The notes under the pieces are model-generated. The model saw only the letters and a list, made by a program, of their open reading frames with translations, did not search any database and had not been told where the DNA came from. The translations under genes were made by a program, and so were the position numbers. Positions 11,923 to 36,978 of a DNA stretch of 44,017 nt are shown in pieces. The DNA comes from an uncultured Gammaproteobacteria bacterium (lineage in GTDB: Bacteria > Patescibacteriota > Patescibacteriia > Magasanikbacterales > UBA922), in NCBI GenBank assembly GCA_964394405.1, contig CAYMVY010000001.1:299219-343235 (forward strand). Direction: 5' to 3'. Each line of letters starts with the position of its first letter. Positions within the stretch are counted from its first letter, which is position 1.

Positions 11923-11949
11923 CGAGTCAGAGCAGAGCCTTGGTCAGGT

Positions 11950-14191: not shown

Positions 14192-14206
14192 GGCTTCTCA
14201 AGATGT

Positions 14207-19241: not shown

Positions 19242-20257
19242 AAAGTTACTATCATGTATTCGATGTTATTGCTTTGGTTTCGACCTCCGGCATTGGCCAC
19301 ACTCCATTTGTGTTCCATCATCTGCACTTCGGCTTTGCGATGTTTCTGCACCATCGCCAAAAGTTTTTCCGGCTTCATTCCCACATCCTCTTTGTTTTGT
19401 CCAAGTGAGATGATCCACTGCGGAATATGTTTTGCCGACTCAAGCATTTTTTCCAAAAACTCATCAGCATCGTTGTTGGAGAAACCGCTCGGTTTGTTGT
19501 CCAGCTTTTTATTGGCAAGAATGTTATCTAAAATCCCATACTCAACTTCGTAGGCAGAAGAGCCAGGATAAGGAGGATCAAAATAAATAACATCACCCTT
19601 AACTTCTTTGAGAAAATCAAACACATCCTGTTGGTGTATTTCATTGTCTTGATGGTTATCAAAAATGCCATGATTAATTTCGTCTTTTAATTTTTCCAAA
19701 GTCATCATCGGATTCTGTATCATCCGCAAATTCTTTGGGGCGTGAGACTTGGACCGAAGTGGCCACTCCCATTTTCGAGCTTCTAAATCCAGCGTGTCCC
19801 GGGTATGTGTAAACTTTCCGAACTGTCGGCAGGACAGAATAAACTTGATGAGTAAATGCAATAAAAGATAGCGTTTTGTTTCGTTTTCCACTTTGTTGGC
19901 GGAAGCGAAAGCATTATCTAAAAATTCGGCAATCTTGGTAGTGAATACTTTCGGGCAGTAATTCTTTTTTATAAAGCTGTCGTGTTTTGTTTCAAAAAAT
20001 AATCTCGCTAAATCCTCGGATTCAAGTTTGACGGAATTGTTTGCGATAATCGCTCGACCAATGATCACTGATCGGAAGGCGATGTCATTGCTTATAACTT
20101 TGTATCCTTTTGCTTTTGCATAGAGACTCACTGATCCGCCTCCCAAGAATGCATCAATAAAAATTCCCTCGGTCTTTTTGATCGGCTTAAAAATGTGCTT
20201 GACCAGTTTTCTTTTTCCGCCGAAGTAACTCGGCAATGCTTGAAATTTACTAAACAT
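19238..20257 (-). CDS. Dam-family (D12 class) N6-adenine DNA methyltransferase.
   Basis: Motifs are present in alpha-class order: FGGKRKL, DAFLGGGSV (FxGxG) and VIYFDPPYPGSS (DPPY). Confidence 0.9.
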   Translation of the reverse strand: MFSKFQALPSYFGGKRKLVKHIFKPIKKTEGIFIDAFLGGGSVSLYAKAKGYKVISNDIAFRSVIIGRAIIANNSVKLESEDLARLFFETKHDSFIKKNYCPKVFTTKIAEFLDNAFASANKVENETKRYLLLHLLIKFILSCRQFGKFTHTRDTLDLEARKWEWPLRSKSHAPKNLRMIQNPMMTLEKLKDEINHGIFDNHQDNEIHQQDVFDFLKEVKGDVIYFDPPYPGSSAYEVEYGILDNILANKKLDNKPSGFSNNDADEFLEKMLESAKHIPQWIISLGQNKEDVGMKPEKLLAMVQKHRKAEVQMMEHKWSVANAGGRNQSNNIEYMIVTL

Positions 20258-21147: not shown

Positions 21148-21176
21148 TTGCATTTACCGCTGTAATCCGTTATAAT
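21148..21176 (+). promoter_or_regulatory. Sigma70-like promoter of the seven-gene operon.
   Basis: TTGCAT (21148-21153), a 17-nt spacer, then TATAAT (21171-21176), ending 40 nt upstream of the Fic ATG. Confidence 0.6.
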
Positions 21177-21216
21177 CCACTATATAACTTATAGCGTTAA
21201 ATTATTAATCAAAAAT

Positions 21217-22287
21217 ATGAATATGGACGACATTTTCGACAAATTTGATCATCGCATAAAGAATCCCGATCCACAAATCGTGGCTCTTTTAGCTGAGATT
21301 GATGGAATTCGAGGCGAGTTTAAATCTGGCTTGCGAATGACTCCTCAAGCTATTACTAATCTCAAAAAATCTACACTGATCACTTCAGCTGGTGCTTCCA
21401 CTCGTATTGAGGGTGCAAGATTAACTGATGAAGAAGTGGAGAAAGTCATGAGAGGTCTTGCTGTCTCAAAATTTGCCGATCGTGATTCTCAAGAGGTTCA
21501 GGGATATTTGGAAACGCTTCAGAATGTTTTTGACAGCTATCAGAGCTTACCATTAAGAGAGAGTTTGATCACATCGCTTCACAATCAACTTCTTAAGTAT
21601 TCACACAAAGACGATACTCATCGTGGTGGTTATAAAAAGAAAGAGAATACTGTCGGTGTTCTTGGACCGGACGGAAACATCGCCCAAATAATGTTTGAAA
21701 CCACACCGGCTTACCTTACTGGCAAAGAAATGAATGAACTTGTTAATTGGACAAATGATGCTTTTGAGAAGAATCGTTTTCATAACCTCCTAATCATCGC
21801 AAACTTCATCGTTGAGTTTTTGAAAATCCACCCATTCGAAGATGGTAATGGTCGTCTTTCTCGTGTCCTTACAAATCTATTGCTTTTACAGTCGGGATAT
21901 CAATTTATTCAGTATGTTTCTCACGAGCAAATAGTTGAACGCAGAAAAGATGAATACTATATCGCTCTACGAAAATCACAAGAAACTTTCAAGACTGATC
22001 ACGACACAATCTCTCCTTGGTTGAATTTCTTTCTTTCAGCTGTCAGAGAGCAAGCAACAAAAGCATTATCATATCTCGAAGAGGAAAAGGTGGAAGATAC
22101 TCTCTCACCAAAACAATTCGAGGTATGGAAGCATATCTCAGGTGTCGGCGAGGCGGCTCCCGGCGAAATCGTCAAGGCAACAGACATTGCACTCGGTACG
22201 GTTCGCCAAGCACTCGACCGGTTGGTTGAACTTGGAAAGGTCAAGCGTGTCGGGCGTGGCCGTGGTACGAGATATGTAAAAATATAA
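21217..22287 (+). CDS. Fic-family protein (class II type with an N-terminal inhibitory helix) and a C-terminal winged-helix domain.
   Basis: The Fic core HPFEDGNGRLSR (21829-21864) matches HxFx(D/E)GNGRxxR. The inhibitory motif STRIEG (21397-21414) matches [ST]xxxE[GN]. The C-terminus GEIVKATDIALGTVRQALDRLVELGKVKRVGRGRGTRY is wHTH-like. Confidence 0.9.
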   Translation: MNMDDIFDKFDHRIKNPDPQIVALLAEIDGIRGEFKSGLRMTPQAITNLKKSTLITSAGASTRIEGARLTDEEVEKVMRGLAVSKFADRDSQEVQGYLETLQNVFDSYQSLPLRESLITSLHNQLLKYSHKDDTHRGGYKKKENTVGVLGPDGNIAQIMFETTPAYLTGKEMNELVNWTNDAFEKNRFHNLLIIANFIVEFLKIHPFEDGNGRLSRVLTNLLLLQSGYQFIQYVSHEQIVERRKDEYYIALRKSQETFKTDHDTISPWLNFFLSAVREQATKALSYLEEEKVEDTLSPKQFEVWKHISGVGEAAPGEIVKATDIALGTVRQALDRLVELGKVKRVGRGRGTRYVKI

Positions 22288-22306
22288 ACTTTAATTGGAA
22301 ATCGCT

Positions 22307-22822
22307 ATGAAAAAACAAGAAGATAAAAAAGAGGAAAATATACATCAGGAAGGTAAACGATATTTGAAGAAATTCGAAATCGTTGAGACTGATGTTGAAC
22401 TACCTATTCAGGGTCAGGTTCGTGATCCGGAGGACTTATATAAATTTCTTAAAGACTTGGAGAACGAGAATGTTTCCAAGATTATTGGAATTTATCTTGA
22501 TGACAAAAACTTATTCCTCGGTCATCAAGTTTTCCTCGGGTCATCTCCCAAGAATTTCGACACTCAAATGCTTTGGCATTACTTCTCTCTATTTTTGGCC
22601 AAGAAATTTATCATCATCATGAACCATCCGGGATCAATCGACCCGACTCCTGATGAGGCGGACCGAAAACTTATACGATCACTTCAAGCTGACTCGCAGG
22701 TTTTGTCATTTCATCCTAATTTCGAGGATTTTATTATCGTTTCTAAGCGTTCGTACTTTAGCATGGCGACAAATGATGGCACCGCTTGTCATTGTGGCCA
22801 TCAGGAATACATTCAAGAATAA
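22307..22822 (+). CDS. RadC-like JAB/MPN-domain protein with a degenerate metal-binding motif.
   Basis: The sequence aligns by eye to RadC (DPEDLYKFL..., IGIYLDDKNLFLGHQVFLGS, IIIMNHPGSIDPTPDEAD, EDFIIVSKRSYFSM). Canonical HNHPSGxxxPSxxD is MNHPGSIDPTPDEAD here, and the upstream conserved Glu position is Lys. The ATG is at 22307; the track start at 22295 is TTG. Confidence 0.6.
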   Translation: MKKQEDKKEENIHQEGKRYLKKFEIVETDVELPIQGQVRDPEDLYKFLKDLENENVSKIIGIYLDDKNLFLGHQVFLGSSPKNFDTQMLWHYFSLFLAKKFIIIMNHPGSIDPTPDEADRKLIRSLQADSQVLSFHPNFEDFIIVSKRSYFSMATNDGTACHCGHQEYIQE

Positions 22823-22825
22823 ATT

Positions 22826-23848
22826 ATGAAAAATTACTTTTATTTTAAAGATAAAAAGCAAGTCGTTCCGGTTTTGGACGAGGAAAAAAATAAGCAGGCA
22901 AAAAGTAAACTTGCTAATATCCTTAAAACCAAAAAGGAATTAATCCCTGATCGTTTTATAGAAAGATGGTCAGAGGTTGCTTTATATAATCCGGGTGGTG
23001 ATGTTGAGAAAGCAAACGCAATTTTAATCAATCCGGAAGATGGTGCCTATGATCTGTCAAATCCTTTAAACGATATGACAGGCAAAGAATGGGTAAAATT
23101 TAGTTGTAGTTGGTTCATTTTCAATGCACTCCAAAAAGACTTAAAAGAAGAGCGAGAAATATCTCCAAATACACAAGATCATCCGGCCACATTCTCTCCA
23201 ACGATGATTGAAGATTTTATAAAGTTTTTCACTAAAAAGGGAGAGGCTGTACTCGACCCATTTTGTGGCATCGGAAGCACTATGGTTGCTTGCAAGCGAA
23301 CAGGTAGGATTGGTTATGGAATAGAACTCAATAAAAAATACTACGATTTATCACTGAAACGAACGCCGGAATTCAAAAAAAGTATTTTCAATAAGAATGC
23401 AAAGGATATTAAAAAGTTGAATTTGCCGAAGATAGATTTTTCCATCTCATCACCACCATATTGGGATGTATTAAATAGAAGTACTAAGGATTTCAAAAAG
23501 GATAGAACAAAAGACGGTCTTGATGTTAACTATTCAGAAGCTGAAGAAGATTTGGGCAACATAGACAATTATGATTTGTTCTTAGAGAAATTAGCAGATA
23601 TATACTTTGATATTTTTGACTTACTCAAAGACGGTGGATACCTTGTTGTGATCGTAAAAAATATCAAGAAAGAAGGTAAAATGTACCCTTTGGCTTGGGA
23701 CATTGCTCGTATCCTCTCAAAGAAATATATGCTTAAGGACGAGAAGCTTTGGATACAGGATAAAGTTGGTCTTGCACCTTATGGATATCCATCAGCATGG
23801 GCAAGTAATATCCTGCATCATTATTGCTTAATATTCCAAAAAAAATAG
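22826..23848 (+). CDS. DNA methyltransferase, N4/N6 (PF01555-like) motifs in permuted order (motif I before SPPY).
   Basis: HPATFSPTMIEDFIKFFTKKGEAVLDPFCGIGST (motif I region) is followed ~55 aa later by DFSISSPPYWD (SPPY at 23450-23461). Confidence 0.85.
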   Translation: MKNYFYFKDKKQVVPVLDEEKNKQAKSKLANILKTKKELIPDRFIERWSEVALYNPGGDVEKANAILINPEDGAYDLSNPLNDMTGKEWVKFSCSWFIFNALQKDLKEEREISPNTQDHPATFSPTMIEDFIKFFTKKGEAVLDPFCGIGSTMVACKRTGRIGYGIELNKKYYDLSLKRTPEFKKSIFNKNAKDIKKLNLPKIDFSISSPPYWDVLNRSTKDFKKDRTKDGLDVNYSEAEEDLGNIDNYDLFLEKLADIYFDIFDLLKDGGYLVVIVKNIKKEGKMYPLAWDIARILSKKYMLKDEKLWIQDKVGLAPYGYPSAWASNILHHYCLIFQKK

Positions 23849-23849
23849 T

Positions 23850-25475
23850 ATGGCATTAAAGATTTCACAAATTGTAAATAATTTAATCGATGTAAGCGAT
23901 TTTAAACATGATCGCAAGTATTCTCGTGTTGCCAAACTTCACAAATACTGGTCAAGAAAGCCGTGGTTTGTGATTGATCAATATGTTCAGAAATATTCTA
24001 AAGAAAATCACCTTGTATTAGATCCTTTCTGCGGAAGTGGAATTATTGGGTTACAGTCCGTATTAGCAAACAGAAATTTTATCGGATACGATCTTAATCC
24101 TTTTGCTGTCTTTTTAGCAAAAACTTCTTTGCAAGTTGGTTATAACGAGACTTCTTTCGAAGATGACTTTTTAGCGATTGAGCAAGCTGTTCGGGAGAAA
24201 ATAATGCCTCTTTATGCGACCAAAGACAAATATATCCTATATACCATACTTGGAAAGAAAAACAGTAAAGATTACAACGCTGTAATTTCTGATCGTAACT
24301 TTCAAAACAAACAAAAAGTCAGTCTCTCAAAAAAAGAGCTAGAACCAACTGTAAAATTTCCGAAAAACCTCAAATATCCTGATAAAGACTTCCCAGAAAA
24401 ATTTTACAAAGACCGCTTTTCTTACAAGGGCGTGAAGCGAGTATCTGATATGTTCACGAATAGAAATATCCTTGCTTTGGCATTACTTCACACAGCCATC
24501 AACGAGCTACCTCTTAAGAACAGAGATTTATTTATGCTCGCTTTCACAAACACTCTATTGCATGTAAGTAAGTTGAAAGCCGAGAATGTTCGTCCTCTTG
24601 GTGTAAATAATTTCTGGATTCCAGATGATTTTATCGAAGAGAATGTTTGGTGGAGATTTGTCGATCGTGTACAAAATGTAAAAATGGCAAAAGAGGTTAT
24701 TTCAGAAAGGGCATCAAATAATAAAATTTCGAAGCCAACATCTAAAGTCTATAACAAGTCATCTCTCAAGATGTCTGAGATCAAGAATAATAGTGTGGAT
24801 TATTTGATTACCGATCCGCCCTATGGAGACACCATTCAGTATTCAGAACTTTCTTTTATTTGGAATTGTTGGCTTGAGAAAGACTTTGATATTGAAAAAG
24901 AGGTTATCATTAACCCGGTTCAAAACAAGGGAGTAACCGAGTATTATAACCAGCTCGTGTCTTTTATCGGCGAAGCAAAAAGAGTCTTAAAAAAAGACGC
25001 CTATTTCACGCTTGCTTTTCATAATAAGGACTTAAAAATTTGGATAAGCCTAGCAGAGCTAATCAGGGATCATGGCATGGAATTGGTAGACATATCAGCA
25101 TTCGATACCTTTGGTAGTCCATATAATAAAAATTGGGCAAAGTTCTCCCCGAAGTCCGACTTTTATGTAACTTTTATCAACCGAAACAAAAAAGTTGCCC
25201 CTCCTACTTCCAAGAAAGTGTACCCTCATCAGATTGCTAGTGAAATAATGAAATATCTCGGCAAGAATAATGGAAAACTTTTTAATTTGAATAAGGCTTA
25301 TGATGTCTTTGTCGGTGTAGTAATCAGTAAAATATTTGACGGTTCGCAGGTGGCCGAACACGAGCGGTTAAGTATAGAAAACATCACGAGTCTTTTCCGG
25401 GAATCGGCACCGCCTACCCAGAATCAAATCAAGAGCGGTGTACAGCAAAAATTACTTAACTTCGAACACATTTAA
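23850..25475 (+). CDS. DNA methyltransferase, second copy, with a long insert (putative target-recognition domain) between motif I and DPPY.
   Basis: LHKYWSRKPWFVIDQYVQKYSKENHLVLDPFCGSGIIG lies near the N-terminus, and YLITDPPYGD sits at aa ~322 (DPPY at 24813-24824). Confidence 0.85.
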   Translation: MALKISQIVNNLIDVSDFKHDRKYSRVAKLHKYWSRKPWFVIDQYVQKYSKENHLVLDPFCGSGIIGLQSVLANRNFIGYDLNPFAVFLAKTSLQVGYNETSFEDDFLAIEQAVREKIMPLYATKDKYILYTILGKKNSKDYNAVISDRNFQNKQKVSLSKKELEPTVKFPKNLKYPDKDFPEKFYKDRFSYKGVKRVSDMFTNRNILALALLHTAINELPLKNRDLFMLAFTNTLLHVSKLKAENVRPLGVNNFWIPDDFIEENVWWRFVDRVQNVKMAKEVISERASNNKISKPTSKVYNKSSLKMSEIKNNSVDYLITDPPYGDTIQYSELSFIWNCWLEKDFDIEKEVIINPVQNKGVTEYYNQLVSFIGEAKRVLKKDAYFTLAFHNKDLKIWISLAELIRDHGMELVDISAFDTFGSPYNKNWAKFSPKSDFYVTFINRNKKVAPPTSKKVYPHQIASEIMKYLGKNNGKLFNLNKAYDVFVGVVISKIFDGSQVAEHERLSIENITSLFRESAPPTQNQIKSGVQQKLLNFEHI

Positions 25476-25479
25476 ACAT

Positions 25480-26565
25480 ATGGAAATATACAAAGAAAAC
25501 TTTTTCAAAATATTCAAAGCCAATTTCAATTTTGAGATTGTCGAGACAGACTTGGGTACTGCCATAAAAATGCCAGCTAAGGAGGCTTTTATCTATAGCA
25601 GTGTCACTGGTGCCGGATATCTTGAGAACCCTATTTACCCATTTACTCCCAAGGGGCTCATGAAGCTTTTTTATAATGCCTTTAATTATAAATTCGTTTC
25701 CGGAATTTTTGACAACGGTGTTTTGAAAAATACACCCTTCATTCTTTCCCGTGCAAAACAATATCTTTTTGAAGGAGATAAATTTATAGTTCCAATCGAG
25801 TTTGAATCGGAAGAAAAATTGAACGATATGCTCAAGGCGAAGTTTGATTCTCTAAAAAATAGAGAGAATTACATAATTCAAAGAATTGAGACAAGCAAAC
25901 AAGGCAACGGCATGGAACCTTTTATGGAGTATTTGGCTGGTGAGTATTTCAGACACCTCGGCTTCATTGTTGAGAATCAGATTCCACTTGCTCACGCAAT
26001 AGGATCGCCTGATTTTGCCGGTTATGGTCTTAGCGAAATAATTACGAAGATAAGTAATTACGGTTATTTACCAATAGAGGGCTTTCATATGATTGAGCTA
26101 GCTCTTATAAGAAATTTCAAAAAGGATATTAAAACAAAAGCCGGTCATGTGACACATGATTTTATCGTAGGAGAAGCAAAAACTGGAACCGTCGTTATGA
26201 CTAAACAATTAGAGAAGTATCTCAATACCGGTTTGTTTGATCAGGGTTTTGAAATTTGCCCAACAAAGGCCAAACCGTCAAAAGATTACTTTGGTCTGAT
26301 ATCCCTTGATTCTGACTATAAAATAAAAATTACACTCCCCGAAGCCAAGTATGATGCAAAAAATCCATTATCTCGTGAGGAGTACACGACTTGGCTGGGA
26401 AATTATATAAAATTCTACCTGATTGCAAACTTCACGAACGATGAACTCAAACAGTTTCATCTTGAAGTCAGGGGCGAGGAAATCAATAAAGAGTCGGACC
26501 TCGTTAGTTTCGTTCTTGGGTTAGAAACTGAGACGATCTTGGAGAAAATTAAATCATTAAAATAA
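25480..26565 (+). CDS. Orphan protein; candidate PD-ExK nuclease (possible restriction subunit).
   Basis: The ATG at 25480 lies 4 nt after the methyltransferase stop (the track start at 25438 is GTG). It contains EPFMEYLAGEYFRHLGFIV ... GSPDFAGYG ... DFIVGEAKTG. The 54-residue D-to-ExK spacing is long, so the call is tentative. Confidence 0.4.
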   Translation: MEIYKENFFKIFKANFNFEIVETDLGTAIKMPAKEAFIYSSVTGAGYLENPIYPFTPKGLMKLFYNAFNYKFVSGIFDNGVLKNTPFILSRAKQYLFEGDKFIVPIEFESEEKLNDMLKAKFDSLKNRENYIIQRIETSKQGNGMEPFMEYLAGEYFRHLGFIVENQIPLAHAIGSPDFAGYGLSEIITKISNYGYLPIEGFHMIELALIRNFKKDIKTKAGHVTHDFIVGEAKTGTVVMTKQLEKYLNTGLFDQGFEICPTKAKPSKDYFGLISLDSDYKIKITLPEAKYDAKNPLSREEYTTWLGNYIKFYLIANFTNDELKQFHLEVRGEEINKESDLVSFVLGLETETILEKIKSLK

Positions 26566-26566
26566 T

Positions 26567-27580
26567 ATGGCATACTCAAGCGACGAAATAGTAAAAAGAG
26601 AAATCATAGATCAAATAGGCTTTGAGACCAATGGCATTAAATTACGCATATTTCCTCAAAGCAGTAATGAAGATCAAAAGCCCTTCTCTGAGGGAGGATT
26701 AACTTTCGGGTTTAAAGATGTGTCGTATGGATCATGCGACGCCGCATGGTTTGTTGATGAAGTCTGGAAAGACGGGCTTAATGGAAAAGAAATTGATAAA
26801 AAACCAATAATTGCCCTTGAGGGAACAGATGCTTTGAATAGGAATTCTGGTGGTAACGCTTTATATCAAAGATTTCATCACGCACTTGGTGCAGTTAAAA
26901 ACGGGGTTGTCGGAATTTATTACCTTAAGAAAGGAAAAACAAAAATACAGCCAGATCTTTTTGGCATGGCTTATTTTGCTTCAAAGGTTGAAAAAGGAAA
27001 ATATTTGATAATCGATGACCTGTCGGTTGTTAAGGATTTACTTGATCGTTATGGAGACAAAAAGGAATTTGATTCCTATATCGAAGCGTACTTGGAAAAA
27101 ATGCATGATATTTTTATTAATAAATTCAATGATTCTTATGGCGGTGACTGGGAAAAGTTTGCGGAAAAAAGATCAACCATCATAAGAGATGGTTATGTCA
27201 TTAAATACGCCGGACGCATGAGAAGAAATTTTACAGATGGATCACAAAGAGCTGGGCATATTGCTGTAGGCGAAATGTTTTTAACTAAGTATTATTTTTA
27301 CAATAAAAAGTTTTACTATCTTTTCCCAAAGATGACGCATGCGGACTTGGCCATACTGGATCACAGCAAAACTACTGATAAAGAGTGGTTTCTTTTAAGA
27401 AACGAGCCAAATGTGGAAATAAAGACGATGGATGACTTGGTCGGACTTAGCCCATCAATTAAAGCCTCTTTGTTGGGTATTCAAGATACTCCATTAAAGG
27501 GAGATGCTATTCGTCTTTTCAATAAATGCGTTGAGACTATTGTTGAGGGGCTCAAGAACGGTAAAATTAAATTAAATTAA
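26567..27580 (+). CDS. Orphan protein of unknown function (possible second nuclease or specificity subunit).
   Basis: A 337-aa ORF with an ATG 1 nt after the upstream stop. The only weak acidic candidate motif is CDAAWFVDE ... PIIALEGTD. I recognise no family. Confidence 0.35.
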   Translation: MAYSSDEIVKREIIDQIGFETNGIKLRIFPQSSNEDQKPFSEGGLTFGFKDVSYGSCDAAWFVDEVWKDGLNGKEIDKKPIIALEGTDALNRNSGGNALYQRFHHALGAVKNGVVGIYYLKKGKTKIQPDLFGMAYFASKVEKGKYLIIDDLSVVKDLLDRYGDKKEFDSYIEAYLEKMHDIFINKFNDSYGGDWEKFAEKRSTIIRDGYVIKYAGRMRRNFTDGSQRAGHIAVGEMFLTKYYFYNKKFYYLFPKMTHADLAILDHSKTTDKEWFLLRNEPNVEIKTMDDLVGLSPSIKASLLGIQDTPLKGDAIRLFNKCVETIVEGLKNGKIKLN

Positions 27581-27584
27581 ATTT

Positions 27585-30467
27585 ATGAGCAACTTTCCTT
27601 ATCCAAAAGGGTCGACTTGGAGAAAATGGGATTTACAAACCCAGACTATTTTGGACGACAATTACATCCAGCTTGCTGATTACTCAGAGGAATTAAAAAA
27701 GACTAATCCAGCAGGTTGGCAACAATACATCACAAAAGTCGGAGGTGAAGCCAACGCACTGCTTTATGATTCAAAAGCTTATTTTACTGACACGAAAATT
27801 GATAAAAAAGAACGATGTGTTAACCATGTAAGGAATTTTTTTGCTTTTATCGATGTTTTTAATCCAGAGTTAGATTGTATTGGTATCACTGACCATAATT
27901 ATTTTGACGACTGTCTGCTCGATTCTTTTATAGAATATTCTAAGCAGTCACGATGTAAAATTATTCCGGGAGTTGAGATTAATTGTCAGGGTATCCACAT
28001 GTTATTATTTTTCCCAGACAAACTCTATCAAAAAGAAACATTTTCTGCCGGTATTCAAGCTTTCTTGATAAAATTTGGCATCAATAACAGAACGAACGGT
28101 AGTGGTGTTCTTACGACAACGAGTACGGACATCAAAGAAATTATTGACGAGGTTAAGAAAAACGGTGGCATTATAATCTATCCCCACTGTAATAGTAATA
28201 ATGGTCTTTTTCAGGAACGCACAGCAACCGACCGGACACATTTAGCTGATATATTTAATCATCAAAAAGTAAATCTTTTACAATCTCAACACAATCAATC
28301 ATCGGTCGTTATATCAGACTATATAAAGACAAACAGTACACTTACATCCAAATTCTGCTCGCATATAAGTTCAGACGCAAGGTCATTGCGTGATCTTGGT
28401 AAAGCCGATCAGGATGGTAATTTCTTATGGATAAAAGCTGACCCGACATTTGAGGGTTTAAAGCAGATTGTTTTTGAGCCAGAACAGCGTATTTTTGTCG
28501 GACCTCAAAAACCGGGCGAGAAAAAATCTTATTTTGTTATTGATAAGGTTCGATTCTTGGACAATACCGGTGATGTAAAATTTGCGAGTGATCCTATTGA
28601 GATTAATCAAAATCTTACAACCATTATCGGAGGCAAATCGACAGGAAAATCGTTACTCTTGTATTACATGGCAAAAACGATTGATCGCCAAGAGGTACAG
28701 AGCAGGACTTCCGACAGTGGTGTGCCAGTAAAATATGACTTTGATGCTTCTGTTGATTTTAATTTTGAAGTCACATGGAAGGATGGCCAACACACTTTGT
28801 TAAGGACGCCAGAAGGCACCGCAGAAGACCACTCAAAAGAACGGAAGATTCTATATATTCCGCAGAGATACCTCAATACACTCTCAGAGGCAAACATAAA
28901 AAGTCGCGAGGCATTAAACGAATTCGTTTTGAATGTTATCTTGCAAGACCTAACGGTTAAAGAAAAATACGAGGAGACTGTCAGAGAAATCAAGACCGAA
29001 GTTAAAGCAATACCTACAGCAATCGGTGAATTATTTTCTGATCGTGAGGAAATCAAAAAAACAGAAGACGAATTAAAACAGACCGGTGATGAAAAAGGTA
29101 TTGAGAATTATATTAAAACACTTCAGAAACAGGCTGATGAAATAAAGGTTAAGTCTGGCTTATCAGAAGAGCAGTTAAAACAATATGAGGAGTTGGTTTC
29201 AAAAGAAAAAGAGATAAATGTTCAGATATCCAATCTTGAGCAAGATAAAAAAACGATCAAGAGCTTAAATTCAAATCTGGCTTCGCAAATTGATGGATTA
29301 AAATCGACCATTGATGAAAATGAGGAGTACCTTAATGATGCCGACATAAAAACAAAATTCAAGACAGAATTTAAGGTAGTTGACTCGTTTGCCCCTGGAT
29401 TAAAATCAGCAAGTACAAATTTGATTACTGCAATTGATGGCAAACTAAAAATCCATAATGCCGAGCTGGTTAAAATAAAAGCTGATCTTTCACCATTAAT
29501 GGCAAAGGTCAAACTACAATCCGAGCTTCAGGAAAAAACAGATGCTATTAAGAAAGAACAGCAAAAACTTAATGAGATTGCTATAAAGCGAAATAATCTA
29601 AAGACCAAAAAAGCTTCTTATAAAAAGAAGTCAGATGCTGTTATAGAGTCGTACAAACAAATCGTTCTCAAATATGAGAGTTTACGAAATGAATTCAAAA
29701 AATTTGAGAGCAAATTTGGCGAGATTACTCTTGGAGTACACATCAGTTTTAACGATGATGCGTTTAACTCAAATGTCGTTAAGGAATATATCAACAAGAA
29801 TGATCTTAAGCGAGTCATTGTCGAAGCGGAATGGGGCGATGAGTTTATCTATAAGTATGATCCGACAAAACATTTAGCCAACATCACAACCGTTTTTGAA
29901 GGATTGGTTGGAGGTACTATAAATACCGTTAAGAACCGCTTAGCAAAAGATGCCGTAGCCAAGCTTCTTGAAAATTATTTTTATCTTGATTTCAAAATTT
30001 TCTACAAAAATGATTCTCTCGACAAAATGTCGCCTGGTAAAAAGGGATTAGTATTGCTTCAATTGCTTATCAATTTGAGCGATGGAGAATGGCCAATCCT
30101 TCTGGATCAGCCAGAGGATGATCTCGACAATCGATCGGTCTACGATGATCTGGTGGCATTTCTAAAAAATAAAAAACTTCAAAGACAAATAATTATCGTT
30201 ACGCACAACCCCAACCTTGTTGTTGGTGCTGATGCTGAAGAGACCGTTGTCTCAAATCAATCCGGCCAAGAAGTTGGGCGTGACAATAAAAAATTCCGGT
30301 TTGAATATATATCAGGTGCTTTAGAAAATACATTTGAATTAGATCCTGCCCAAGAATCAGCAATCTTGTATAGAAAAGGCATTAGACAGCATGTATGTGA
30401 AATTCTTGAAGGTGGACAAGAGGCATTCCAAAAACGAGAACAAAAATACAGTTTTCCTAATAATTAA
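27585..30467 (+). CDS. PHP-domain + SMC/ABC-type ATPase with a long coiled-coil insertion (PplA-like/TrlF-like architecture, from memory).
   Basis: PHP-type blocks in the N-terminal part: WDLQTQT, GITDHNYF, IPGVEINCQGIHMLLF, IIIYPHCN, SSDARSLRDLG. Walker A is GGKSTGKS (28629-28652). A heptad-rich region spans aa ~470-730. The signature-like motif is MSPGKKGLVLLQLL, Walker B is ILLDQPEDDLD (30096-30128), and the H-loop is IIIVTHNPN. Confidence 0.75.
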   Translation: MSNFPYPKGSTWRKWDLQTQTILDDNYIQLADYSEELKKTNPAGWQQYITKVGGEANALLYDSKAYFTDTKIDKKERCVNHVRNFFAFIDVFNPELDCIGITDHNYFDDCLLDSFIEYSKQSRCKIIPGVEINCQGIHMLLFFPDKLYQKETFSAGIQAFLIKFGINNRTNGSGVLTTTSTDIKEIIDEVKKNGGIIIYPHCNSNNGLFQERTATDRTHLADIFNHQKVNLLQSQHNQSSVVISDYIKTNSTLTSKFCSHISSDARSLRDLGKADQDGNFLWIKADPTFEGLKQIVFEPEQRIFVGPQKPGEKKSYFVIDKVRFLDNTGDVKFASDPIEINQNLTTIIGGKSTGKSLLLYYMAKTIDRQEVQSRTSDSGVPVKYDFDASVDFNFEVTWKDGQHTLLRTPEGTAEDHSKERKILYIPQRYLNTLSEANIKSREALNEFVLNVILQDLTVKEKYEETVREIKTEVKAIPTAIGELFSDREEIKKTEDELKQTGDEKGIENYIKTLQKQADEIKVKSGLSEEQLKQYEELVSKEKEINVQISNLEQDKKTIKSLNSNLASQIDGLKSTIDENEEYLNDADIKTKFKTEFKVVDSFAPGLKSASTNLITAIDGKLKIHNAELVKIKADLSPLMAKVKLQSELQEKTDAIKKEQQKLNEIAIKRNNLKTKKASYKKKSDAVIESYKQIVLKYESLRNEFKKFESKFGEITLGVHISFNDDAFNSNVVKEYINKNDLKRVIVEAEWGDEFIYKYDPTKHLANITTVFEGLVGGTINTVKNRLAKDAVAKLLENYFYLDFKIFYKNDSLDKMSPGKKGLVLLQLLINLSDGEWPILLDQPEDDLDNRSVYDDLVAFLKNKKLQRQIIIVTHNPNLVVGADAEETVVSNQSGQEVGRDNKKFRFEYISGALENTFELDPAQESAILYRKGIRQHVCEILEGGQEAFQKREQKYSFPNN

Positions 30468-30491
30468 AGTTGTGACGAAGGTCTAAATAAA

Positions 30492-30520
30492 TTGTCTTTT
30501 GGGGTTTAATTTGATATAAT
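30492..30520 (+). promoter_or_regulatory. Sigma70-like promoter upstream of the rnk-like operon.
   Basis: TTGTCT (30492-30497), a 17-nt spacer, then TATAAT (30515-30520) preceded by TG-n (extended -10 type). Confidence 0.55.
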
Positions 30521-30584
30521 GAACTTAATATGTTTCTGCATAATATATACAAAAATACCACACTTTCTTTTCCTACTGTCACTT

Positions 30585-30623
30585 AGCCAGTTGTTTTAGT
30601 GCATGAGCAAAAAACAACCGGCT
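30585..30623 (+). promoter_or_regulatory. Upstream hairpin that competes with the terminator (anti-terminator candidate).
   Basis: agccagttgtttt (30585-30597) pairs with aaaacaaccggct (30611-30623) at 12 of 13 positions. The 3' arm is also the 5' arm of the terminator. Confidence 0.45.
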
Positions 30624-30640
30624 AAAACGGTTGTTTTTTT
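30611..30640 (+). terminator. Intrinsic terminator or attenuator.
   Basis: aacaaccg (30613-30620), loop gctaaaa, cggttgtt (30628-30635), then a T-run to 30640. It is preceded by an A-run. Confidence 0.65.
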
Positions 30641-30653
30641 AAATTTAGAACCT

Positions 30654-31049
30654 ATGACCAACATATACATTACAAAAAATGATCACAAAAAATTGATCAA
30701 GTTGATAAATGAAAAATTGCCGGATAACGACAGTACTCGTTCTTTGCTTTCGGAACTTAAAAGAGCGGAGATTGTCGAACCGGAAAAGATACCTGCCAAT
30801 GTCATTACCATGAATTCCTTGGTGAATTTTACAGATGTAGATTCGGGAACGGAACTTGAGTATTGGTTAGTTTTCCCCGAGGATGCTGACATTGCTCAAC
30901 GCAAGATATCAGTGATTTCTCCGGTGGGGTGTGCTTTATTGGGGTATCGCGTTGGTGATATCATTAATCTTAAAACACCGAGTGGAGAGAAAAAAATCAA
31001 AGTCGAAAAAATATTGCACCAACCCGAAGCCGAAGGCAACTATGAATAA
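30654..31049 (+). CDS. rnk: Rnk-like regulator (GreA/GreB C-terminal-domain family, regulator of nucleoside diphosphate kinase).
   Basis: It aligns by eye with E. coli Rnk as I remember it (VITMNSLVNF..., ISVISPVGCALLGYRVGDII..., VEKILHQPEAEGNYE versus [39 protein letters not shown]). I prefer the start at 30654; the ATG at 30603 would translate through the terminator hairpin. Confidence 0.85.
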   Translation: MTNIYITKNDHKKLIKLINEKLPDNDSTRSLLSELKRAEIVEPEKIPANVITMNSLVNFTDVDSGTELEYWLVFPEDADIAQRKISVISPVGCALLGYRVGDIINLKTPSGEKKIKVEKILHQPEAEGNYE

Positions 31050-31698
31050 TATAAAAAACAAAAATAAAATAAGCACGACAATCCGCTTTTTAATATTGTC
31101 CGATTTTTTTCTTTTTTTTGCCGTCGGTTTATTGGCACCAATATTCGCCGTCTTTGTCCTTGACAATATAGATAACAAAATAGAAGTTATCGGTTTTGCC
31201 GTGTCTTGCTACTGGTTGACCAGAGTGATTATGGTTGTTCCATTTAGCCGGCTAATGGATAAAATCAGGGGTGAAATTGACGAATATTCGTTCATGATCA
31301 TTGGCACTTTTTTAATATCGATCATTCCCTTATTTTATATCATGTCATCCGCCCCTTGGCATATTTATGTATTGCAGATAGTGAACGGAATTGCTAACTC
31401 TATGGCAGTTCCGGCTTGGCGTATTCTCTTTACCAATCACATAGATAAAAAAATTGTAGGTCTTGAATGGTCGTTAGAAGATGTCGGGGTCGGCATCGCT
31501 ACGGCCTCCAGTGCCACTATCGGTGCTTTTATCGCCAGCAAGCTGGGTTTTAACGCCTTGTTCGGAATTATTTCGTTTTTCGGTTTGATAGCCACAATAA
31601 TTCTCATTGTTTTGAGCAAGAAAAAAGGAATGATTCTAAGCAAATTTATCATCAATAAAGCGGAAAAAGCACCGCTCAAGTTGGATACTTTTAAATAA
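31042..31698 (+). CDS. Half-size (about six predicted TM helices) MFS-like membrane protein.
   Basis: The ATG at 31042 overlaps the rnk-like stop (tATGAataa). It encodes 218 aa with about six hydrophobic segments. A normal MFS transporter has 12. Confidence 0.55.
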   Translation: MNNIKNKNKISTTIRFLILSDFFLFFAVGLLAPIFAVFVLDNIDNKIEVIGFAVSCYWLTRVIMVVPFSRLMDKIRGEIDEYSFMIIGTFLISIIPLFYIMSSAPWHIYVLQIVNGIANSMAVPAWRILFTNHIDKKIVGLEWSLEDVGVGIATASSATIGAFIASKLGFNALFGIISFFGLIATIILIVLSKKKGMILSKFIINKAEKAPLKLDTFK

Positions 31699-31702
31699 TT
31701 TT

Positions 31703-32632
31703 ATGATCAACAATCTATTCATTTTCATAGTCGCTCTGTTAATGGTTATAAAGGGTGCGACAATGGCCACAAAATACTCAGCCAAATTGGCAGAGAGTTT
31801 TAATATCTCGAAATATATTGTGGGATTTATTATCGTTGCGTTTATTTCAATCCTGCCCGAGACATTAATTTCAATTAACTCTGCCATCAGTGGCATACCT
31901 GAGTTTGGCCTTGGTACATTATTTGGCTCAAATATTGCTGACCTATCTTTGATATTTGCAATCCTGATCATATATGCAGGCCGGGGTATGAAAATAGAAA
32001 GTAAAGTTTTGAAAAATGTACGACTATATCCTTTCTTTTTGCTTTTACCATTATTATTCGGTTTAAACGGACACTATTCAAGAATTGAAGGTGTATTCTT
32101 AATTATGGCAGGTATAATTTTTTATTATCTGGTATTTAAAAACGGAATTGATGTATCTGCAAATTTACGGAATGGCAACGGAAAATATAAAAGTCTCTTA
32201 TTTTTGATCATCTCGATGGCCCTGCTATTGGTTGGCTCGCATTTTACCGTAACTTCAGCTACTGCTCTGGCTCATGCTCTAAAAATAACACCTATTCTTA
32301 TCGGTATGCTTGTTGTAAGTTTGGGTACGACTATGCCAGAATTATTTTTCTCTTTAAAGGCTGTAAAACGAAAAGATGATGGATTGGCGGTTGGCGATAT
32401 TATGGGATCGGTTTTGGCAGATGCTACTATCGTGGTTGGTATTTTGGCCACAATCAGTCCGTTTTTCTTTCCAGTTAAAATTGTTTATATTACGGGGGTC
32501 TTTATGGCCATGTCCTCATTCATACTGCTTAAATTCATGAAAACAGGAAAGTTAATTACGAAAAATGAAGGGTATTTGCTTTTACTTTTTTGGGTTGTTT
32601 ATGTTGTTGTTGAATTTTTAGCAAATAGATAG
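31703..32632 (+). CDS. CaCA-family cation/Ca2+ antiporter (YrbG-like).
   Basis: Two alpha-repeat signatures are present, GTLFGSNIADLSLIFAI and GDIMGSVLADATIVVGI, with about 10 hydrophobic segments. Confidence 0.8.
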   Translation: MINNLFIFIVALLMVIKGATMATKYSAKLAESFNISKYIVGFIIVAFISILPETLISINSAISGIPEFGLGTLFGSNIADLSLIFAILIIYAGRGMKIESKVLKNVRLYPFFLLLPLLFGLNGHYSRIEGVFLIMAGIIFYYLVFKNGIDVSANLRNGNGKYKSLLFLIISMALLLVGSHFTVTSATALAHALKITPILIGMLVVSLGTTMPELFFSLKAVKRKDDGLAVGDIMGSVLADATIVVGILATISPFFFPVKIVYITGVFMAMSSFILLKFMKTGKLITKNEGYLLLLFWVVYVVVEFLANR

Positions 32633-33117: not shown

Positions 33118-33684
33118 CTAAGTATCCTCGACTGCTACCCATTTCTGTCCCGTCCACATGTGCTTCTTACCGTCTATAATTTTTATCTTTACCCCTCCAA
33201 TGGACATTTTCTCGGCTAACATCGACCTTAATTCTTTGAAATTTTTAATTTGCTCGTAATTCTTTTTATTTAAATCTTTTTCTTTATTCTTGTTAGTAAG
33301 TCCATTGGACCGATCCCACCGGTCTGTATGACCGAACTGCCGGTCAGGCTGACCGATCTGTTTTAAGTTCGGTCTATCTGACCTATCTACTTTCAACAGG
33401 TAATACACATTGGAAAATTTACGGCGTTTCTTATTTATCAGTCCCAGCTTGATCATCTGTCGGATACCTCTTTGCACGCTGGAAACGCTCGAACCGATTC
33501 TGTCAGCAATAAGCTTGTGGGATGGAAAACAAAAACCCTCCTGATTAGCGTGTTCAGCCAGGCAATTATAAATAGCGATGCCGATTGGTTTAATTTTGCT
33601 TCCATACTCATCGAGAAGTACTTTGCTAATCCAGAACCAATCGCCATTTCTTAAATCTCTTACTTTTATTTTATCGTCCGACAT
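33118..33684 (-). CDS. Winged-helix/HTH protein, replication-initiator-like.
   Basis: FPSHKLIADRIGSSVSSVQRGIRQMIKLGLINKKRR is typical of phage or plasmid replication-type wHTH proteins. The gene sits in the early region and contains internal iteron-like DNA repeats. Confidence 0.55.
   Translation of the reverse strand: MSDDKIKVRDLRNGDWFWISKVLLDEYGSKIKPIGIAIYNCLAEHANQEGFCFPSHKLIADRIGSSVSSVQRGIRQMIKLGLINKKRRKFSNVYYLLKVDRSDRPNLKQIGQPDRQFGHTDRWDRSNGLTNKNKEKDLNKKNYEQIKNFKELRSMLAEKMSIGGVKIKIIDGKKHMWTGQKWVAVEDT
33308..33374. repeat. Three tandem inverted-repeat units GACCGA-n-(C/T)CGGTC, spaced 21-22 bp (iteron/origin candidate), inside the wHTH gene.
   Basis: The units are gaccgatcccaccggtc (33308-33324), gaccgaactgccggtc (33330-33345) and gaccgatctgttttaagttcggtc (33351-33374). 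Confidence 0.5.
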
Positions 33685-33775
33685 GGCCGTGAATAAAAAG
33701 GCGTGACCGACCTACAGATCGCGCCTTATTCCTCCCTTCACGCCTGGCGTCATTGAGGGGAGAGTAAGGTGCCAT

Positions 33776-33988
33776 CTACCACTCACGGGACTTGGGCAGA
33801 GCTCGGTCGATGTTGTCCATTGCTCTACAAAAGTCATGCCGAATTCTTGGGTTCTCTAATTCTCGGATTGTGAAATTACTCAGCAAGCTCTCCCTCCTCG
33901 CCAAAAGTTCTCTCCGGGTTAATGGCTTGCGAGTCATCCGTTTCCAGATCCTCTGAATTATTCTTTTGATTAGAATTCTCGTTGTCAT
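33776..33988 (-). CDS. Hypothetical small basic protein (overlaps the next ORF in another frame).
   Basis: ATG start, Arg-rich. It shares 113 nt with 33876-34154, so at least one boundary is uncertain. Confidence 0.3.
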   Translation of the reverse strand: MTTRILIKRIIQRIWKRMTRKPLTRRELLARRESLLSNFTIRELENPRIRHDFCRAMDNIDRALPKSREW

Positions 33989-34154
33989 ACTTTTTAATGT
34001 GATCTAAATGCTCTAACAGCATGAATGCCATGCGTTTAAAGCCAGCATGGACACGCCAAACTTCTTGCTTACTCGGTTCTCGGCCGAGCACCTCGGACAA
34101 GGCGTTTTTGGTAAGCTCAATGAGAGCTTCCTCATCCTTTGTTGGTTTGGACAT
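33876..34154 (-). CDS. Hypothetical early protein.
   Basis: A 92-aa ORF with an ATG start. It is preceded by an operator copy at 34213-34230. Confidence 0.45.
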   Translation of the reverse strand: MSKPTKDEEALIELTKNALSEVLGREPSKQEVWRVHAGFKRMAFMLLEHLDHIKKYDNENSNQKNNSEDLETDDSQAINPERTFGEEGELAE

Positions 34155-34212
34155 GTGATTTGGTTCATAAGAGTGACCTCACACTTTTACTGACCCTCAC
34201 ACACCTTTTCCA

Positions 34213-34230
34213 TTAAGCGTTTTTGCTTAA
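34213..34230. promoter_or_regulatory. Operator copy 4 (18-bp palindrome).
   Basis: ttaagcgtttttgcttaa, located between the cro-like stop and the next early gene. Confidence 0.55.
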
Positions 34231-34233
34231 CTT

Positions 34234-34440
34234 CTAAGGCAAAAAAATATCCTCAACTTTTACCCCCAACGCTAGGGCAATTCTCTGGGCGGTTTCCAAA
34301 TTCGGCCGTTTTCTTCCGGTCTCATATCGGCTGATCGCTGTGTTATGTTTAAAGCCGAGAATACGGGCTAGTTTGTATTGCGTTAGTCCTTTCTCGATTC
34401 TAATATCCCTCAGTCGAATGTTGGTTGGTGTTTTTTTCAT
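34234..34440 (-). CDS. Cro-like XRE-family HTH regulator.
   Basis: A 68-aa protein, LRDIRIEKGLTQYKLARILGFKHNTAISRYETGRKRPNLETAQRIALALGV, divergent from the CI-like gene. Confidence 0.85.
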   Translation of the reverse strand: MKKTPTNIRLRDIRIEKGLTQYKLARILGFKHNTAISRYETGRKRPNLETAQRIALALGVKVEDIFLP

Positions 34441-34467
34441 AGTTTGATAAATTAGACCTCTATAGTC

Positions 34468-34496
34468 ATATTAAGCAATTTTGCTTAATTCGTCAA
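34468..34496 (-). promoter_or_regulatory. Promoter of the cro-like/early operon.
   Basis: The minus strand reads TTGACG (34496-34491), a 17-nt spacer, then TAATAT (34473-34468). Operator 1 fills the spacer. Confidence 0.55.
34471..34488. promoter_or_regulatory. Operator copy 1 (perfect 18-bp palindrome).
   Basis: ttaagcaa tt ttgcttaa. Confidence 0.65.
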
Positions 34497-34511
34497 TTAC
34501 TGTCCTTGTGG

Positions 34512-34529
34512 ATAAGCATATTTGCTTAA
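34512..34529. promoter_or_regulatory. Operator copy 2 (imperfect).
   Basis: ataagcatatttgcttaa. It overlaps the -35 of the CI-like promoter. Confidence 0.55.
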
Positions 34530-34550
34530 TCTTTACATATTTGCTATATT
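34522..34550 (+). promoter_or_regulatory. Promoter of the CI-like repressor gene.
   Basis: TTGCTT (34522-34527), a 17-nt spacer, then TATATT (34545-34550). Confidence 0.45.
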
Positions 34551-34577
34551 ATACTAAGATGTAATTAGGATTATTAA

Positions 34578-34585
34578 TTAAGCAA
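34578..34585. promoter_or_regulatory. Operator half-site.
   Basis: ttaagcaa, 12 nt upstream of the CI-like ATG. Confidence 0.3.
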
Positions 34586-34596
34586 ATAACAAAAAT

Positions 34597-35319
34597 ATGT
34601 CATTTGGCTCATATCTAAAAAAACAAAGAGAAACCAATCAGTGGACAGCCAAGGATATTGCAGATCGCCTTGGCTTTTCTGCCAGTTATGTCAGCCAGCT
34701 GGAAAACGACACTCGACTCCCTTCGCAAAAGCAGTTGAGTCTTTTGGCGAGGGCTTACGAGACTTCGGAGGATGAAATAAAAAAACAGTGGACCGAAGCG
34801 AAGATCCACAAGGTTAGTCTTTCCTCTGATTATAAATTTAATATCAAAGAGGCTGGCGAGAAGCGTGTCGAAGAGATGACTCACAAATTGGAGGCTGGTT
34901 TGGAGGAATTGAAAAAGACAATCACAGCCGATGAGGTTGCTCATTACAAGATGCCACTGTTCAACACGATTCCGGTGGACGATCTTGATCTACACCTCAA
35001 ACATGCGGAGGAATTTATTTTTATTCCAAAAAATGGAATCGTGCGTGATCACCGTATATTCGGTATCAGAGTTTCTGTCACTCCATTTCCGGAGGCAGGT
35101 ATAATCACTGGCGACCTGATTATGCTTGATGCGGATATTGAGATTAATGATGGAGACATCGTGGCATTGAATACACCAGACGGCATGATCATGACTTATT
35201 ATAAAAAGCGTGGTAACTCTTTAGAAATCACAACGAGTCAGCCAGGCGTTAAGAAGACCTACCCTGTTGAAGGGGTCAAGCCGATAGGTCGGTTGATTTA
35301 TCACATAAAAAAATACTAA
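34597..35319 (+). CDS. CI-like repressor: XRE HTH + S24 (LexA-like) peptidase domain.
   Basis: The N-terminus is WTAKDIADRLGFSASYVSQLENDTRLPS. The C-terminus is AGIITGDLIMLDADIEINDGDIVAL ... YYKKRG. The usual G-D-S-M block reads R-V-S-V-T-P here. Confidence 0.8.
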   Translation: MSFGSYLKKQRETNQWTAKDIADRLGFSASYVSQLENDTRLPSQKQLSLLARAYETSEDEIKKQWTEAKIHKVSLSSDYKFNIKEAGEKRVEEMTHKLEAGLEELKKTITADEVAHYKMPLFNTIPVDDLDLHLKHAEEFIFIPKNGIVRDHRIFGIRVSVTPFPEAGIITGDLIMLDADIEINDGDIVALNTPDGMIMTYYKKRGNSLEITTSQPGVKKTYPVEGVKPIGRLIYHIKKY

Positions 35320-35322
35320 CCA

Positions 35323-35352
35323 CAGGGCTCGCCAAGAGCCCTGCTGTTTTTT
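35323..35352 (+). terminator. Intrinsic terminator between the repressor and integrase genes.
   Basis: cagggctc, loop gccaa, gagccctg, then ctgtttttt. It is an 8-bp GC-rich stem. Confidence 0.75.
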
Positions 35353-35364
35353 ATAACAAAAAGT

Positions 35365-36978
<1,614 letters not shown>

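Follow-up and report, generated by a model that had tools for sequence, protein, structure and literature searches.

A gap-free seven-gene prophage operon as a probable mosaic of mobile defence modules built around a Type IIS-like restriction-modification cassette

BsrDI and BtsI, two Type IIS restriction-modification (RM) systems, combine N6-adenine and N4-cytosine methyltransferases with an endonuclease of two subunits, one bearing a D-E-QR site and a recognition domain and the other a PD-EXK site, each of which cuts one strand of an asymmetric sequence (PMC1950550). The non-canonical site of the larger group has been published as (P/A/F)D-X13-17-E-X12-QR (PMC1950550). These enzymes have monomeric relatives in BsmI, Mva1269I and BsrI. 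Here we analyse a 44,017-nucleotide stretch of DNA (contig CAYMVY010000001.1, positions 299,219 to 343,235; hereafter the window), within which a prophage carries an operon of seven genes, g1 to g7: its four central genes (g3 to g6) resemble such a Type IIS system, its first two encode a Fic protein and a RadC-like JAB protein, and its last encodes a TrlF-family ATPase.

Several described proteins provide points of comparison for the genes around this core. Ppl of E. coli is an anti-phage defence encoded by a single gene, reported to be a 3'-5' single-stranded DNA exonuclease triggered by 3'-OH ends together with nucleotide depletion (PMC12904381). PrrC and RloC are ABC-ATPase anticodon nucleases that occur within Type I loci and have been described as RM guardians (PMC12707154). 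In Photorhabdus, the temperature-restriction locus (TRL) trlR-trlF-trlG limits host growth at high temperature; all of the mutations lie in trlG, whose product combines AlbA_2 and HATPase_c_4 domains, and TrlF was not shown to have any role (PMC7554251). SoFic, to which the first gene of the operon is similar, is a single-gene system. To our knowledge no function has been demonstrated for any member of the TrlF family, including the many encoded on Klebsiella plasmids.

We reason, with a probability of roughly 0.75, that the operon is a mosaic: three defence modules, each independently mobile, have been stacked in a temperate phage's cargo slot and are co-transcribed. Module A would comprise g1, a SoFic-like, auto-inhibited Fic AMPylase, and g2, a catalytically degenerate RadC/JAB protein that can be lost. 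Module B (g3 to g6) would be a complete RM system in the style of BsrDI, BtsI and BsmI, directed at an asymmetric site. Module C, g7, would be a relative of Ppl, with a PHP domain and a Rad50-like ABC ATPase, captured at the 3' side of the RM operon. An initial annotation of the same DNA had instead proposed one composite, previously unnamed system.

Like BsrDI and BtsI, the operon encodes a methyltransferase of N4-cytosine type by motif (g3, M1, with SPPY), one of N6-adenine type by motif (g4, M2, with DPPY) and a subunit with PD...EXK (g5); g6 carries D...E...QR residues, at spacings longer than those published. Both methyltransferases match Pfam N6_N4_Mtase (7e-24 for g3, 9.7e-19 for g4) and PADLOC MTase_II, g4 with an additional partial match to PglXI, and in both proteins motif I precedes motif IV. 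Neither g5 nor g6 matched a family in Pfam, NCBIfam or PADLOC, and sequence-profile searches of the PDB with g5, g6 and TrlF returned nothing useful. In g5 the site reads P177-D178...E232-A-K234, with D178, E232 and K234 invariant in 30 homologues, and Foldseek comparison of its AlphaFold model (predicted local distance difference test score, pLDDT, 91.6) retrieved MmcB-like PD-(D/E)xK folds (3dnx, probability 0.99; MmcB-like entries of BFVD, probability 0.98-1.0). In g6 the residues D58, E85, Q101 and R102 are likewise invariant in 30 homologues, and the top four PDB structural matches of its model (pLDDT 93.5) are all BsmI (E 4.5e-5 to 7.5e-5, probability 1.0, query-normalised template modelling score 0.40-0.44), followed by weaker matches to BbvCI and Mus81; the resemblance of g6 to BsmI is one of predicted fold. 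We also considered g5 and g6 as paralogues of one another and rejected the idea (BLASTP E = 1.1; hhalign probability 0.2%).

Taken together, g5 and g6 resemble a Type IIS restriction enzyme made of two subunits. The initial annotation had cast these two proteins, then orphans, as a module linking DNA modification to the effector encoded by g7; that role fits poorly with their own catalytic sites and with AlphaFold/Foldseek matches that lead to nucleases, and from motifs and modelled folds they are probably the restriction nuclease itself rather than adaptors between methylation and the PHP protein. By motif, M1 would probably form N4-methylcytosine and M2 N6-methyladenine, each protecting one strand; g6 would bind the site and nick one strand through D...E...QR, and the canonical PD...ExK site of g5 would cut the other, completing a double-strand break. 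We infer both the methylation types and this heterodimeric mode of cleavage from the resemblance to the described enzymes. One difference lies in subunit size, g5 and g6 being similar (Table 1) and the subunits of BsrDI (56 + 25 kDa) and BtsI (38 + 19 kDa) unequal. The RM core is probably a new member, divergent in sequence, of an already known kind of Type IIS RM system, with add-ons from known families on either side.

Searches of public sequences retrieved 355 homologue clusters for g5 and 530 for g6, and the two families share contigs. Gene-context look-ups combined with a metagenome scan placed the two methyltransferase genes, g5 and g6 together in all of the roughly 70 loci whose flanks were long enough to hold them, the order being rearranged in just three (L095, L118 and L120; identifiers of this form denote individual loci). 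Most of the approximately 70 have no TrlF, Fic or JAB gene, and TrlF follows the cassette in a minority. Because g3 to g6 co-occur in this way while Fic, JAB and TrlF are patchy, the evolutionary unit is the four-gene cassette rather than the block of seven genes.

Comparison with sister prophages (73-97% nucleotide identity) locates the boundary of this unit precisely. They share with the window the phage backbone and a Fic-(JAB)-RM block up to positions 27583-27591; in eight sister loci homology breaks exactly where g6 stops and g7 starts, to pick up again within the lysogeny module near 33.05-33.26 kb. In the window the variable segment contains TrlF, rnk, half of a major facilitator superfamily (MFS) gene and a Na/Ca exchanger gene. 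Its counterpart in L055 encodes a TrlF 85% identical to g7 in protein sequence, and those in L050, L052, L054, L057 and L126 a TrlF-family protein 23% identical to g7 that scores 498 bits on the NCBIfam model NF045780. The slot holds a gene for a 380-residue unknown protein in L046, where the cassette proteins are 97-99% identical to those of the window, and one for an AAA_13 ATPase in L047 (94-100%). More broadly, the gene after g6 encodes an AAA_13/SMC_N ATPase (L039, L047, L066, L081, L084), an OLD-family ATPase (L080), a HATPase protein (L059) or a STAND-like NTPase (L085), or belongs to a second RM-like pair (L048, L051, L056, L076); elsewhere the cassette is followed by a recombinase gene on the opposite strand, or by nothing. 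The g6/TrlF junction is a swap point.

Related temperate phages (L046-L057, L126) show the corresponding interval, window positions 27587-33255, as hyper-variable cargo with a sharp left boundary. A Parcubacteria contig with kinship to this prophage (L031:10001-10679) retains no more than the last 225 or so TrlF codons (93% nucleotide identity), with the lysogeny region about 5 kb further on, and looks like a scar of deletion or recombination. A scan of viral contigs with a profile of the 960-type TrlF gave no match; one contig of viral origin, L126, has the cassette together with a TrlF of the divergent, 929-residue type.

Several observations weigh against the mosaic reading or parts of it. 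The structural matches of g5 are weak (E about 5e-3). The D...E...QR residues of g6 are spaced X26/X15, longer than the published X13-17/X12. Neither subunit has sequence-level homology to characterised restriction enzymes in family libraries or in sequence-profile searches of the PDB, so that the likeness to BsrDI, BtsI and BsmI is accompanied by no detectable similarity of sequence. Finally, two very divergent types of TrlF (23% identity) follow the same cassette in sister prophages, which hints at a functional tie beyond mere stacking.

The product of g7 scores 489.6 bits over residues 88-955 on NF045780 ('TrlF family AAA-like ATPase'; cut-off 350), and matches Spaf_1101 and the Ppl C-terminus more weakly. 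It shares the PHP + ATPase architecture of Photorhabdus TrlF and lies above the cut-off of the model named for that protein. Its ABC motifs, namely Walker A (GGKSTGKS, G349-S356), the signature (S816-K819), Walker B with the D-loop (838-848) and the H-loop (H874), are invariant in 16 diverse members. The N-terminal region is less conventional: it has no Pfam PHP match, and the canonical ligand set (HxH, DH, E, H, H, DxH) is incomplete, three ligands having been lost. Within the clade at 60% identity or more, motif I reads Q18-x-Q20 (67/70 and 61/70; window positions 27636-27644) and the last motif D264-x-R266 (68/70; 28374-28382), and the remaining six ligands are present in 70/70. The TrlF clade at 40-60% identity has a different, complementary set of substitutions. 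In these alignments the non-canonical PHP states are conserved rather than decaying. Given the altered motifs, nuclease activity of TrlF is uncertain, though the altered residues are themselves conserved, and the ATP-driven PHP nuclease effector envisaged in the initial annotation is to that extent unproven.

The comparison with Ppl is one of plan rather than of close membership. Both proteins place a PHP domain at the N-terminus and an ABC-type NTPase at the C-terminus, and the C-terminal ATPase of g7 matches the Ppl models of PADLOC (1.3e-18, residues 810-951 only) and NCBIfam (7.7e-31). The match falls short of full length, however, and the NCBIfam score of 106.8 bits lies far under the equivalog cut-off of 1000; the g7 clade has the Q-x-Q and D-x-R forms of the PHP motifs; and g7 is operon-linked to an RM system, whereas Ppl is solitary. 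A reading of the locus as a TRL was also rejected, no TrlG or TrlR domains being present among the 30 ORFs (open reading frames) of the window that were scanned.

A profile of g7 homologues identified 38 loci from species-representative genomes, one of which is L001, a near-identical copy of the window, leaving 37. None of these 37 contained a homologue of g1, g2, g5 or g6 by tblastn or phmmer. RM genes of other kinds are nevertheless a recurrent companion: in 17 of the 37 they are contiguous with TrlF and on the same strand. The distance between TrlF and the gene directly upstream, tabulated for 15 of these, was -8 to 6 nucleotides in 10 loci, 10-13 in two and 54-88 in three; with L016, whose CfrBI gene is cut by the start of the contig, there are 16, and 11 of the 16 measured gaps are no longer than 13 nucleotides. 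In the seventeenth case, L007, and in L006, TrlF overlaps the upstream gene by a few bases and lies inside a Type I operon, between hsdS and hsdR (HsdM-HsdS-TrlF-HsdR). The partners include an N6_N4 methyltransferase with MvaI/BcnI, a methyltransferase with CfrBI, a DpnII-like enzyme with a methyltransferase, an EcoRI-type methyltransferase with GmrSD_N-HNH, HsdM/S fusions, and ResIII or SNF2 enzymes. At least eight unrelated RM types have TrlF operon-tight at the 3' end or inside. Metagenomes added four further cases: TrlF between hsdM and hsdS (HsdM-TrlF-HsdS-x-Fic-HsdR, L130); TrlF-Vsr-HNH beside a C5 methyltransferase; a C-protein, an EcoRI-type methyltransferase and GmrSD_N/HNH, followed by TrlF; and a Hypoth_Ymh-TrlF pair beside an AlwI system.

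Members of the TrlF family with 73-85% identity to g7 accompany RM systems that differ entirely from one another. The presence of such similar proteins on unrelated RM types argues against a partner-specific interaction, and the recurrence of the linkage makes it probable that the juxtaposition of TrlF and RM genes is not pure chance. The supposition that the genes of the operon belong together does not hold for TrlF and this particular cassette, and does hold in the general sense that TrlF is recurrently operon-linked to RM systems. We found no paper on a link of TrlF or Ppl to RM systems, or on Spaf_1101, in a literature search of incomplete coverage that amounts to absence of evidence only. 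In no fewer than 14 further loci, a large serine recombinase adjoins TrlF or the RM cassette.

Our preferred interpretation is that TrlF would serve as a generic second layer, independent of RM type, acting on or triggered by DNA ends or breaks that arise from restriction or from the phage, and that it would not bind one specific restriction enzyme as its partner. We favour it because Ppl is reported to be an exonuclease triggered by DNA ends and TrlF is indifferent to the type of RM system beside it. A possible but doubtful account is that TrlF is an autonomous, Ppl-like defence whose adjacency to RM genes reflects the clustering of defence genes, with no functional coupling. TrlF does stand alone beside recombinases or integrases in L004, L017, L131 and L135; it occurs in 196 plasmid records, mostly from Klebsiella, and the one region inspected has it beside Gabija-like and Abi genes and not RM genes; the slot after g6 also accepts OLD, AAA_13, HATPase and STAND genes; and Ppl itself acts as a single gene (PMC12904381). 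Autonomy sits less easily with the observation that in about half of the loci TrlF is translationally coupled to, overlaps or is embedded in an RM operon (L006, L007, L130), a linkage tighter than ordinary island clustering and of the same pattern as that of the RM guards PrrC and RloC.

That last resemblance raises the alternative that TrlF is itself a guardian in the manner of PrrC, silenced by the RM complex and causing abortive infection when a phage deploys anti-restriction. In both cases an RM operon has a gene for a Rad50-like ABC ATPase inserted into it or added on to it, g7 following g6 by 4 nucleotides. AAA_13 ATPases, which we take to be the family of PrrC and RloC, fill the slot after the cassette and replace TrlF in L039, L047, L066, L081 and L084. 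The genomic pattern is that of prrC embedded in Type I loci (PMC12707154), and a limit on host growth at high temperature is what the Photorhabdus TRL imposes (PMC7554251). In g7, however, the PHP-like domain is N-terminal, with neither a C-terminal anticodon nuclease nor a match to AAA_13, and TrlF lacks an anticodon-nuclease domain; in some loci TrlF has no RM system nearby, and it accompanies many RM types rather than Type I alone. A specific protein-protein latch is hard to reconcile with TrlF proteins that are 73-85% identical to one another and yet sit with Type I systems, with several Type II ones and with SNF2/ResIII-type (Type III-like) ones, and we consider the guardian model unlikely. 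More speculatively, the second-layer interpretation could be extended: TrlF ATPases might constitute an unrecognised general class of portable second-stage modules for the 3' ends of essentially all RM operons (Type I, several Type II, SNF2/ResIII), cooperating through the DNA product, by sensing or processing the ends that restriction leaves and not by way of a specific protein partner, with the slot after the cassette as a docking site that exchanges TrlF, AAA_13, OLD and similar ABC ATPases. We offer this generalisation tentatively, as possible but less likely than not.

Both genes of module A are add-ons. The g1 product has a Pfam Fic match (1.6e-15), matches the PADLOC SoFic HMM (hidden Markov model) over its full length (1.2e-43, residues 25-354), and carries a canonical active-site motif, HPFEDGNGRLSR, which fits HxFx(D/E)GNGRxxR, together with an inhibitory helix of the form S-x-x-x-E-G (STRIEG) and a C-terminal winged helix-turn-helix (HTH); these are the features it has in common with SoFic. 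It differs in being the first gene of an RM operon rather than a system on its own, and in scoring 53 bits on the NCBIfam SoFic equivalog, far under the cut-off of 550. Only the closest prophage sublineage has a Fic gene upstream of the cassette, other lineages having HTH_17, HicB or Peptidase_M78 genes there. The Fic protein would most simply be one more single-gene defence or toxin in the stack. The metal site of g2 is degenerate, the first histidine of the catalytic HxH...D pattern being lost (the motif reads MNHPGS); the protein has no PADLOC match, and its gene is precisely absent from the sister loci L055, L048 and L122. In the Type I locus of L130 (positions 4521-14259; HsdM-TrlF-HsdS-187aa-Fic-HsdR), the TrlF is 82% identical to g7 and the Fic protein 26% identical to g1 (E 4e-15), so that Fic and TrlF co-occur with RM genes in a second, unrelated context.

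These findings leave little room for a single integrated system in which self is marked by methylation, the two orphans link this mark to an ATP-driven PHP nuclease effector and the Fic and JAB proteins regulate: gap-free, co-oriented genes behind one promoter, and about nine sister prophage loci with Fic-JAB-M1-M2-g5-g6 and then a TrlF-family gene, speak for it, but every module occurs without the others, the orphans carry their own nuclease active sites, near-identical cassettes in L046 and L047 lack TrlF, JAB is missing from L055, L048 and L122, and three canonical PHP ligands are lost in the g7 clade, so that synteny largely refutes it and we hold it to be very improbable. The initial annotation had itself named a lack of synteny of ATPase homologues with the methyltransferases and orphans as evidence to the contrary, and in large part this is what the homologues show.

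The physical description of the operon, by comparison, stands. An ORF listing places seven plus-strand ORFs at 21217-30467, with junctions of exactly 19/3/1/4/1/4 nucleotides when ATG starts at 22307 (g2) and 25480 (g5) are taken, as had been described. The promoter reported ahead of them can be read directly in the sequence and its -10 element is perfect, but the -35 element agrees with TTGACA at only 3/6 positions, and for this reason a consensus scan omitted the site. The terminator-like hairpin that closes the operon is strong, at -15.1 kcal/mol (z = -3.9), with none of 200 shuffles equally stable. Across the region neither promoter-like matches (31 vs 37.1±6.9) nor terminator-like matches (10 vs 8.7±3.1) exceed those of shuffled sequence, so that it is chiefly the gap-free packing that supports the operon call. 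The domain assignments (Fic, degenerate RadC/JAB, two methyltransferases, PHP-like/SMC-like ATPase) were likewise confirmed, as was the view that no named multi-gene system fits: PADLOC gave single-gene or partial matches only, and its search did not find the signature components of BREX, DISARM, MADS, Hma, Lamassu, Wadjet, Gabija or Septu, returning only partial PglXI, mad2, HmaB and DUF1156 matches besides the generic MTase_II. Membership of MADS, BREX, DISARM or Hma was rejected, the partial matches being confined to methyltransferase domains. The seven genes, all of defence type, form a single, tightly packed transcription unit in a prophage accessory slot. Coordinates are collected in Table 1.

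Table 1. Coordinates of the operon and of neighbouring features in the window
Feature	Position	Strand	Remarks
Promoter-like TTGCAT-17-TATAAT	21148..21176	+	ahead of the operon
g1, class II Fic AMPylase, SoFic-like	21217..22287	+	C-terminal winged HTH; add-on particular to this prophage lineage
g2, RadC-like JAB protein	22307..22822	+	degenerate metal site; dispensable insert; Pfam RadC 35.6 bits vs cut-off 22.1
g3, DNA methyltransferase M1, N4-cytosine type by motif	22826..23848	+	motif I DPFCGIG at 144; motif IV SPPY at 209
g4, DNA methyltransferase M2, N6-adenine type by motif	23850..25475	+	motif I DPFCGSG at 58; motif IV DPPY at 322
g5, predicted restriction endonuclease subunit, 'Ct'-type	25480..26565	+	361 aa; PD178...E232-x-K234
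g6, predicted restriction endonuclease subunit, BsmI-like, 'Cb~TRD'-type	26567..27580	+	337 aa; D58...E85...Q101-R102
g7, TrlF family	27585..30467	+	PHP-like N-terminus and Rad50/SMC-like ABC ATPase with coiled-coil insert
Intrinsic-terminator-like hairpin closing the operon	30610..30640	+	11-bp stem and T run
rnk, half-length MFS ORF, Na/Ca exchanger	30654..32632	+	Pfam/NCBIfam; variable cargo, outside the system
Prophage lysogeny module (HTH_36, CI-like HTH_3, large serine recombinase)	33118..36978		abuts tRNA-Ser; 73-94% nucleotide conservation in sister prophages
CI-like HTH gene	34597..35319		part of the lysogeny module
Large serine recombinase	35365..36978		3' end overlaps opposite-strand tRNA-Ser(CGA), 36885-36974

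The hairpin falls within the longest ORF for rnk, which starts at 30603; the NCBIfam match begins at residue 19, which makes an in-frame ATG at 30654, past the hairpin, the probable true start. A second promoter-like sequence, a good one, TTGTCT-17-TATAAT with an extended TG, lies at 30492-30520 between the TrlF stop codon and the hairpin, and given this site the hairpin would sit in the rnk leader. The MFS ORF (30931-31698), which has a GTG start and overlaps rnk, covers profile positions 2-174 of 347 only and is probably what remains of a truncated gene in the cargo.

The location in a prophage, the AT-richness of the cargo and its transcription against the phage genes, all put forward earlier, were borne out. 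Terminase, major head, tail fibre and lysin genes occupy the minus strand at 0.2-20 kb, and GC content is 0.34-0.40 across 21-33 kb vs 0.41-0.47 in the phage structural genes. The overlap of the recombinase gene with tRNA-Ser(CGA) marks the likely attachment site. Megablast of the operon and phage arm against phage and plasmid collections gave no match. At the distal end of the structural arm, a minus-strand ORF of 1058 residues (216-3392) is without Pfam or PHROG match. The phage backbone has a DNA methyltransferase of its own (18432-20257, minus strand; PHROG 27806, 2e-37), distinct from the two of the operon, and a neighbour of it shows a weak ParB_N-like match (E 2e-4, under the Pfam cut-off).

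The metagenome-assembled genome (MAG) that supplied L001 is labelled Gammaproteobacteria. At 73-85% protein identity, the closest kin of g7 and of the prophage are in MAGs of Patescibacteria/CPR (candidate phyla radiation), WWE3, Bdellovibrionales and Deltaproteobacteria. Two explanations offer themselves: a doubtful host label, or a very recent transfer between phyla.

The locus is a cautionary case, in that a gap-free operon may still be a stack of independent modules. Two abundant protein families, those of g5 and g6, none of whose public clusters is annotated, gain a probable function as restriction endonuclease subunits. Type IIS enzymes of this kind are a natural source of strand-specific nicking enzymes for biotechnology. 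The recurrent linkage of TrlF to RM operons, for its part, provides a testable lead on the role of the TrlF family, and bears on layered immunity in bacteria with small genomes and in their phages.

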